Shown here piece after piece: positions 5,596-5,705 of a stretch of DNA of 64,000 nt (position 1 is its first letter; each line of letters begins with the position of its first letter). This stretch comes from Candidatus Dormiibacterota bacterium (GTDB lineage Bacteria > Chloroflexota > Dormibacteria > Aeolococcales > Aeolococcaceae), in assembly GCA_036521195.1 (NCBI GenBank), contig DATDID010000040.1, positions 65,979-129,978 of the forward strand, in the 5' to 3' direction. The translations under genes and the position numbers were made by a program. The notes under the pieces were generated by a model. That model was not told the DNA's origin and did no database searches. It worked only from the letters and a program-made list of their open reading frames with translations.

Positions 5596-5675
5596 GATGG
5601 GCGACCTCCGATACGTGTGGTTCGGTGATCGGTCGCCCCTCCGGCCGTTCCGGGGTGAGCACCCGGACAGTCAGC

Positions 5676-5705
5676 AGGCTATACGGATTTGTGTATGTCT
5701 GTCAA
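5676..5705 (-). promoter_or_regulatory. sigma70-type promoter for the pilin/VirB6/M23 operon
   Basis: Minus strand reads TTGACA (5705-5700), then TATAGC after 16 nt or TAGCCT after 18 nt. Confidence 0.6.

Follow-up and report, generated by a model that had tools for sequence, protein, structure and literature searches.

What kind of regulatory unit precedes two minus-strand genes for small proteins in a soil bacterium of the lineage Candidatus Dormibacteria, and does the similarity of the two leaders reflect a shared function? The leaders lie within a window of 64,000 nucleotides, the whole stretch of DNA that was analysed. We propose, with a probability of roughly 0.6, that they represent a conserved control unit with two layers for a single gene module of Candidatus Dormibacteria, which would combine an operator in the promoter with a factor-dependent switch in the leader RNA. 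The structure of the RNA was obtained by comparing sequences, and its function is what we infer from that structure.

Two elements, called A and B, are common to both leaders and are read on the minus strand. Element A is ATACACAAATCCGTATAG (positions 5679 to 5696) in copy 1 and ATACACAATCTCGTATAG (10095 to 10112) in copy 2, and rereading of both regions confirmed the 15 of 18 identical positions reported in the initial annotation. Element B is CGGCCGGAGGGGCGACCG (5630 to 5647, CGGCCG-GAGGGG-CGACCG) in copy 1 and CGGCCGGTGGGGCGACCG (10050 to 10067, CGGCCG-GTGGGG-CGACCG) in copy 2. Again the positions were as described, with 17 of 18 identical and a single A-to-T change between the copies. This similarity of B between the two leaders is far from chance. 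Without a mismatch, B is found at exactly two places in the 3.14-Mb genome, and sites with two mismatches are about as frequent in the pattern scan of the genome as in its control. BLAST of the genome with short words revealed no further copy of either leader, and with only two copies by BLAST and pattern scans, a repeat or mobile element spread through the genome was ruled out. All 41 scanned genomes of the genus carry B, and in the same genomes the AT-rich core of A (TACACA-N5-GTATA) has about 80 matches, compared with 2 for a reversed control pattern. Thus, a motif scan of the genome and its relatives places both elements far above background. Moreover, 19 consecutive columns covering B are invariant in 29 copy-1 leaders, whereas only 11 of 80 third-codon positions are invariant in the adjoining gene.

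Copy 1 is located upstream of an operon (3903 to 5595, minus strand) recognised from Pfam hits. It codes for a pilin-like protein of 79 amino acids with two hydrophobic helices (5356 to 5595), a TrbL/VirB6-like protein (4409 to 5350) and an M23 peptidase (3903 to about 4403). Copy 2 precedes a gene (9660 to 10022, minus strand) whose translation is a 120-amino acid protein. A membrane helix at its N-terminus is followed by a Pro/Ala-rich linker and by a conserved helical part at the C-terminus, and homologues of this protein are found behind the same leader in other genera. A 132-amino acid frame for the copy-2 gene was replaced, as the start is the ATG at 10020 to 10022. Searches of Pfam, NCBIfam, PHROGs and PDB sequences for the function of the two small proteins came back empty. 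The bipA/typA gene (7773 to 9635, minus strand, Pfam), whose start lies 24 nucleotides after the stop of the 120-amino acid gene, occupies this downstream position only in this genus. There, bipA/typA may be co-transcribed from the regulated copy-2 promoter.

The two loci had been described as unlinked, a view that does not hold. They are 4.4 kb apart on one strand, and both are on one strand, 4 to 6 kb apart, in all 36 same-genus genomes searched by DNA. In other genera both genes belong to one operon in the order 120-amino acid protein, pilin-like protein, TrbL and M23 peptidase, and so the apparent regulon is one split gene module. The 120-amino acid gene is immediately upstream of the pilin-like gene in loci of three other genera (L130 of g15, L140 of g14 and L128 of g18) and in two database loci (L190 and L191). 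In the last two, there is a single leader and the pilin-like gene starts at most 5 nucleotides after the stop of its neighbour. The module is chromosomal and conserved in position, and no ATPase, relaxase or integrase is present nearby. There is also no regulator gene conserved beside it, and the neighbouring ORFs have no match in Pfam, NCBIfam or PHROGs.

The copy-1 promoter, read from the sequence, has a TTGACA -35 box (5700 to 5705, minus strand) that is invariant in 29 orthologues and lies 16 nucleotides from the -10 box TATAGC (5678 to 5683, minus strand). Element A, a near-palindromic putative operator, fills this spacer, which contains ATACACAAATCCG, and overlaps the -10 box. About 10 nucleotides separate TATAGC from a 5' hairpin termed P1. 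The promoter stretch of copy 2 is ATACACAATCTCGTATAGT, followed by a 5' hairpin different from that of copy 1. Its -10 box is TATAGT (10094 to 10099, minus strand), and a TTGATA (10112 to 10117, minus strand) abuts element A 12 nucleotides before the -10 box. Copy 1 thus has spacing of the sigma-70 type, TTGACA-16-TATAGC, whereas copy 2 is without a -35 box at the proper distance. A promoter scanner called neither, refusing copy 1 because position 6 of the -10 box is C, and finding for copy 2 only the 12-nucleotide spacing from TTGATA to the -10 box. Both are therefore best regarded as predicted promoters, assigned through their conservation, and the transcription start of each leader is likewise a prediction. 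In the other 28 aligned species, the -10 box of copy 1 is TATAGT; the TATAGC of this genome may weaken the promoter of the pilin operon.

Across the family, element A takes the form (C/A)TACACA-N4-5-TGT(G/A)TA, a near-palindrome with a TTGAC-type -35 box on one side and a TAnnnT -10 box on the other; the offset to the two boxes shifts between genera. The palindromic site is over-represented at the promoters, and its form is conserved across the family. Element A probably binds a dimeric transcription factor, for which a repressor in competition with RNA polymerase is the likeliest candidate.

Two sets of A-like sites elsewhere were considered as evidence of a wider regulon and set aside. The third A match of this genome (contig C21, 3128 to 3146; locus L084/L200) overlaps the start of a gene for a ComEA-like protein of 190 amino acids, a DNA-uptake receptor. 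This gene is apparently leaderless, with a TACACT -10 box and 7 nucleotides before the ATG. The TACACT-N7-ATG arrangement is kept in 29 other species, mostly without the full A pattern, and the comEA match to element A is probably incidental. The sporadic extra A-like sites in other genomes of the genus (L076 to L079, L082 and L083) form a tandem box, tCACACAT-N3-CTGTAGTA-TACACA-N5-GTATA. These boxes sit at the start of genes for proteins of about 300 to 415 amino acids beginning MCD or MCN, four of the six having 412 to 415 amino acids, and the full-length genes end in an HNH-type motif (DUF222-like, probably mobile). An ATG inside the first box of the tandem suggests leaderless transcripts under a related operator. 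These DUF222/HNH-type promoters, too, were left out of the regulon.

The alignment of copy-1 orthologues loses its homology abruptly right before TTGACA. Hardly any variation is seen in the promoter, P1 and B, and the stretch from B to the SD sequence is free to vary. The copy-2 leader is conserved likewise, although its gene is only 70 to 86% identical. Orthologous leaders are therefore conserved while flanks and loops diverge. A covariance model built from 57 distinct leaders of the genus was searched over 161 genomes of the order. It matched all genomes of the genus and representatives of ten other genera of the same family (g7, g10, g11, g13 to g15 and g17 to g20), and the matches are often paired, a few kb apart. 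Outside the genus, each match is directly followed by a homologue of either the pilin-like gene or the gene for the 120-amino acid protein. In a sample of 301 genomes of the class, the model gave no match outside the family. More distant metagenome-assembled genomes, labelled Chloroflexota and with a TrbL that is 51 to 55% identical, carry a recognisable version with the same predicted fold. This version consists of TTGACC-at-CACACACATGTTTGTGTAGGCT, a GCCGGC hairpin and GGCCUGGAGGGGCGGCC, then AGGAGGCGCCUCCC-GUG.

Some genomes also hold extra or decaying copies of a piece made up of the promoter, the leader and about 30 codons from the start of the pilin-like gene (G036:C74:861-1032; G030:C8:9000-9080; L133:5063-5134; L120:6528-6597; L127:3017-3086), and the control unit has thus been duplicated repeatedly. 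The extra copy in L133 is fused to a 421-amino acid ORF. Three public records (L150, L152 and L172) have a TrbL 80 to 93% identical to that of this Dormibacterota locus, yet are titled Saccharimonadales or Acidiferrales and are probably mislabelled bins.

The separate 5' hairpin noted in the initial annotation is present as P1 of leader 1, TCCGGG-N7-CCCGGA (5649 to 5667, minus strand). P1 of leader 2, GGCCGAGC-ACC-GCTCGGTC (10068 to 10086, minus strand), also folds, and occupies the same alignment columns with a different sequence. In an alignment of leaders from the whole family (100 leaders, 98 of them distinct), all six pairs of P1 covary through changes on both sides, and 97% of the cells are paired. 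Within the genus, two-sided changes are seen in five of the six pairs (57 distinct leaders). P1 abuts B with a linker of only 0 to 3 nucleotides, which is AA in copy 1. An alternative pairing between P1 and the linker (CCGG with CCGG) was ruled out, since the sequence of P1 changes in other genera whereas the linker is constant. We also rejected an upstream small ORF, whose sole candidate start falls in the variable loop of P1 and has no SD sequence. The leader contains no terminator-like feature that would point to an intrinsic terminator or attenuator.

The remainder of the leader is predicted to form a long hairpin, P2, that hides the SD sequence. In copy 1, B is followed by a 20-nucleotide variable stretch and then by ATCGGAGGTCGCCCATC and the GTG start codon (5593 to 5595), and the 3' strand of the hairpin spans positions 5593 to 5611 (minus strand). 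The 3' part of B, GGGCGACC (5631 to 5638), is perfectly complementary to GGTCGCCC (5599 to 5606), which ends 3 nucleotides before the GTG exactly as had been described, and TCGG pairs with CCGA (5622 to 5625). The SD sequence is GGAGG (5605 to 5609). In copy 2, the stretch after B (10020 to 10049, minus strand) opens with TCAACG-TCGAT-CGTTGG, whose TCAACG and CGTTGG form the inner helix, and continues with AGGCCGTCCC and the ATG at 10020 to 10022. Its SD sequence is GGAGG (10030 to 10034), and the flank GGCCGTCCC (10023 to 10031) pairs with B imperfectly, with one G.U pair and one A.C mismatch.

Nearly every orthologue, when folded singly, yields P1 and the long hairpin, in which two helices share the SD sequence and its A bulges out. 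The same hairpin is formed by distant relatives whose B is modified. The inner helix takes the first two G nucleotides of the SD sequence and changes from UCAAAG/CUUUGG to CAACG/CGUUG in one clade of copy 2, and is YCGA/UCGG in copy 1. The energy computed for the local SD hairpin at 37 °C is -15 to -30 kcal/mol. The fold of leader 2 (-44.8 kcal/mol) is far more stable than that of shuffled sequences (z = -4.5), and that of leader 1 is slightly more stable (z = -1.6). The minimum-energy folds of this genome also pair the 5' half of B with the start codon and the second codon, but the second codon varies among species and we discarded this pairing.

Covariation supports the outer helix of P2, in which B pairs with the flank of the SD sequence. 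In the 98 distinct family leaders, 94.5% of the cells of this helix are paired. Pair 54-92 is A-U in 78 leaders, G-C in 9 (10 in a second count), with the G-C form coming from several genera, and U-A in 1. Pair 52-95 is C-G in 90 and U-A in 1. These two compensatory pairs, together with the minimum-energy folds, define the 3' strand of the hairpin. An independent RNAalifold run on the family alignment recovers P1 together with six of the eight B/SD-flank pairs. Within the genus, this helix is 94% paired with zero double changes (57 distinct leaders), because B never varies there. In copy-2 orthologues, A is the most common base opposite G42 (C, U or G occur as well), which leaves one internal mismatch (G.A) in most. 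As is generic for leaders that sequester the SD sequence, the pairing of an upstream segment with the SD and start region is kept, including by compensatory change. The predicted SD-hiding helix is thus supported by compensatory change and not by conservation alone. The covariation check on orthologous leaders found such changes in P1 and, family-wide, in the B/SD-flank helix.

One locus separates the two elements. In L128, a second unit of B and P2 is found between the 120-amino acid gene and the pilin-like gene without any A element, from which we conclude that B belongs to the ribosome-binding site and not to the promoter.

The initial annotation viewed B as the strand that pairs with the SD region. 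This is correct for its pairing with the SD flank but incomplete, as B can also fold by itself into a complete hairpin in competition with the SD-hiding helix. The sequence CGGCCG-G(A/U)GGGG-CGACCG is self-complementary and gives a 6-bp stem with a 6-nucleotide loop (6+6+6), with one C.A mismatch in this genus. The borders of the invariant 18-nucleotide block are the borders of this hairpin. Outside the genus, the stem is found as GGCCG/CGGCC, GGCCA/UGGCC, GGUCA/UGACC and GGUCG/CGACC. Among the 98 sequences, pair 43-54 is C.A in 83, C-G in 11 and U-A in 4. Pair 45-52 is G-C in 93 and A-U in 5 and is never unpaired, and pair 40-57 is C-G in 95. Pair 45-52 takes its A-U form in pilin-type leaders of g19 and g20 and in a 120-amino acid-type leader of g14, while other g20 leaders keep G-C, so that at least two independent events are likely. 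The change of C52 to U is also matched in the SD flank (partner A or G), and that of A54 to G is matched by a change of U92 to C. Thus, the B hairpin and the SD-hiding helix share bases, and both partners track the changes. Double changes in the B hairpin affect two pairs in few sequences, a number that is reached by 106 to 122 of 500 shuffles and is not above control. The hairpin would explain why CGGCCG, C40 and G57 are conserved although they are unpaired in the fold that hides the SD sequence (the OFF fold).

When transcripts of g14 and g19 are truncated, as in the nascent state, their lowest-energy structure is the B hairpin. In the full-length leader at 25 °C, a fold forced to contain it lies about 9 kcal/mol above the OFF fold, with a mean of about 9 to 10 kcal/mol for recurrent full-length B variants, and the B hairpin with a free SD sequence costs about 13 kcal/mol. 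The B hairpin therefore could not win at equilibrium without help, and a factor or kinetic control would be needed. Because the two helices use the same bases, the folds are mutually exclusive and the leader looks like an OFF/ON switch in these predictions. Two leaders in L133 have B variants that differ at three positions but keep the hairpin and loop, which favours a reader of shape plus loop, such as a protein or ligand, over a complementary RNA.

In the two-layer unit that we propose, the first layer would operate on DNA. Element A, a near-palindrome of about 16 bp (TACACA-N4-5-(T)GT(A/G)TA) between the -35 and -10 boxes, would be bound by a dimeric factor that blocks RNA polymerase. The second layer would operate on RNA. 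The transcript is predicted to begin a few bases before the GC-rich P1, followed by the 18-nucleotide B and the long hairpin P2. In P2, GGGCGACC would pair with the last two G nucleotides of the SD sequence and the bases up to the start codon, and the inner helix would take the first two. As P2 occupies the SD sequence, translation would be OFF by default. A trans-acting factor, most likely a protein that recognises the B hairpin, might then capture B in its hairpin form and free the ribosome-binding site. Alternatively, a short co-transcriptional time window before P2 forms could serve in place of a factor. The initial annotation had already put forward an operator combined with a structured leader in which the ribosome-binding site is occluded, and saw no match to a known riboswitch. 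This picture is supported by motifs above background, conservation, covariation and the absence of an Rfam match, while the start of transcription and the role of A as an operator keep the standing of predictions.

A bolder version, which we regard as rather unlikely, is that P1 and the B hairpin together make up a new sensor domain of very small size. Its reader would be either a small molecule or a dedicated RNA-binding protein that signals the state of export or assembly of the pilin-like/TrbL apparatus. With a protein as reader, the sensor would amount to the partner-switch logic of FliW, CsrA and flagellin built from unrelated parts. With either reader, it would be a new class of translational switch in a phylum without cultured members or known RNA regulators.

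Other readings of the leader must be weighed against the factor-dependent switch. The leader might be a fixed structure that does not switch, in which P1 protects the 5' end, P2 permanently damps translation or is a processing site, and the self-complementarity of B is incidental. Membrane and wall-lytic proteins would then be made at a low, set level. The stability of the OFF fold, about 9 kcal/mol greater than that of any fold with the B hairpin, is consistent with this, as are the mismatch of the B hairpin in most sequences and the fact that no effector was found. However, simple damping needs no 18 invariant bases, and the partner strand drifts whereas B does not. In addition, the 5' arm CGGCCG with C40 and G57 is unpaired in P2, yet is conserved across genera and covaries with the 3' arm. 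We judge a fixed structure to be unlikely, though to be taken seriously. The leader of E. coli rpoS offers another precedent, as it folds over its ribosome-binding site and is opened by the anti-antisense small RNAs DsrA, RprA and ArcZ. Our leaders share the fold-back, the OFF default and, as proposed here, the need for a trans-acting partner. An antisense-type small RNA from elsewhere might pair with B in this manner and open the SD sequence, B being invariant because both leaders match one partner. The same B is indeed present in two paralogous leaders and across genera, and the gap of 9 to 13 kcal/mol is within the range of a 10- to 12-bp RNA duplex. Unlike in rpoS, no partner RNA was found in the genome, which holds no further exact or one-mismatch copy of B or its complement, and the strand that pairs with the SD region finds a partner within its own leader. 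Near-matches that recur resemble conserved coding sequence, one of them inside comEA, and the three-position B variants of L133 fit recognition of shape better than recognition of sequence. Hfq (PF17209) is absent from 21 genomes in a search for which control genomes were positive. Given this and the lack of a close copy of the complement of B, activation by an Hfq-dependent small RNA was rejected; an Hfq-independent one would be compatible with the absence of Hfq. Overall, we find a small RNA partner quite unlikely. The flagellin (hag) leader of Bacillus subtilis is controlled by CsrA through a GGA in an upstream hairpin loop and another in the SD sequence. The same two GGA positions occur here, and the regulated gene again codes for a small filament-type subunit. 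Unlike hag, half of the copy-2 leaders of the genus have GGU where GGA otherwise stands in the B loop, and no CsrA gene (PF02599) exists in 21 genomes, control genomes again being positive, so we dismissed control by CsrA/RsmA.

A small-molecule riboswitch would have P1 stacked on the B hairpin, with the G-rich loop and the C.A mismatch forming a ligand pocket that stabilises the ON fold. Small hairpin-type aptamers exist. Translational riboswitch platforms such as SAM-II and preQ1-II sequester the SD region with an upstream strand, whose competing fold sets the OFF or ON state, and both helices covary. The leader resembles these platforms in the strand that pairs with the SD region, in a candidate competing fold of that strand and in changes on both sides of the two mutually exclusive helices, which few sequences carry in the B hairpin, and its conserved loop, internal mismatch and short linker between P1 and B would also suit a riboswitch. 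It differs in that it has no recognisable aptamer, ligand or Rfam match. Its conserved core is a very small 18-nucleotide hairpin beside a variable one, without a junction or a conserved P1 loop. Watson-Crick pairs take the place of the mismatch in several genera, and no ligand is suggested by the regulated genes, none of which is a metabolic or transport gene. These features make a riboswitch improbable. Even less weight is given to an RNA thermometer whose SD helix melts on warming. Known thermometers of the ROSE and fourU types hold the SD sequence in an imperfect hairpin with a bulge, and P2 does likewise, with a bulged A and an internal mismatch. Database records place these organisms in seasonally cold peat soils. 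However, the four G nucleotides of the SD sequence stay paired from 5 to 65 °C in the computed partition function of all four leaders tested, where the mean unpaired probability over GGAGG is about 0.2 to 0.4 and stems mainly from the bulged A. The helices are also GC-rich, and the local hairpin has the high stability given above. It is hardly conceivable that B acts as DNA, for example as a second operator downstream of the start site that forms a roadblock, even though CGGCCG is palindromic and B is as invariant as A. The position of B is fixed relative to the SD sequence and start codon and not the promoter, and B occurs without A between two genes in L128. Furthermore, changes in B are compensated in the SD flank 35 to 45 nucleotides away, which is sensible only in RNA. 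In conjugative elements, control of transfer genes by an operator over the promoter is exemplified by ImmR of ICEBs1, and traJ/FinP of F provides a layer at the ribosome-binding site. The palindromic site over the promoter of a VirB2/VirB6-like gene set, with a second layer at the ribosome-binding site, recalls these systems. Unlike them, the module is a chromosomal one of conserved position that lacks nearby transfer or integration genes, and its second layer is an intramolecular fold rather than an antisense RNA.

An Rfam 15 search of the whole window at gathering thresholds returned only two tRNAs, and a search of the region from 5000 to 11000 at E values up to 10 returned nothing at either leader, in agreement with the suggestion that the leaders match no known riboswitch. 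Our search of a paper library found no paper that links Dormibacterota with riboswitches and no described gene-regulatory element for the lineage. The principle, an operator over the promoter plus occlusion of the ribosome-binding site with an anti-sequestering alternative, is classical, whereas the RNA family, its compact design and the host lineage are new. The value of the finding is thus a new RNA family and a model system and not a new mechanism. Candidatus Dormibacterota is an abundant uncultured lineage of soil and peat, for which the unit supplies a promoter-operator that can be tested, together with a compact leader RNA whose OFF fold is defined and for whose ON state there is a candidate. 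The unit also ties an orphan 120-amino acid membrane protein to a pilin-like/TrbL/M23 module that has no ATPase, and so helps to define this module.

Two further observations concern the DNA upstream of the copy-1 promoter. Positions 5745 to 6470 have no coding-type GC3 signal and are not homologous between species of the genus. They hold a weak match to the c-di-GMP-I-GGC riboswitch (6135 to 6223, minus strand), which was rejected because its 22.7 bits (E = 0.056) fall below the gathering score of 59 bits; as noted, the region around it is not conserved between species. Adjacent to this region, on the plus strand (6473 to 7540), a gene for a pyridoxal-phosphate enzyme of the PALP family is split into two halves of one frame by a single in-frame stop codon at 6995 to 6997.
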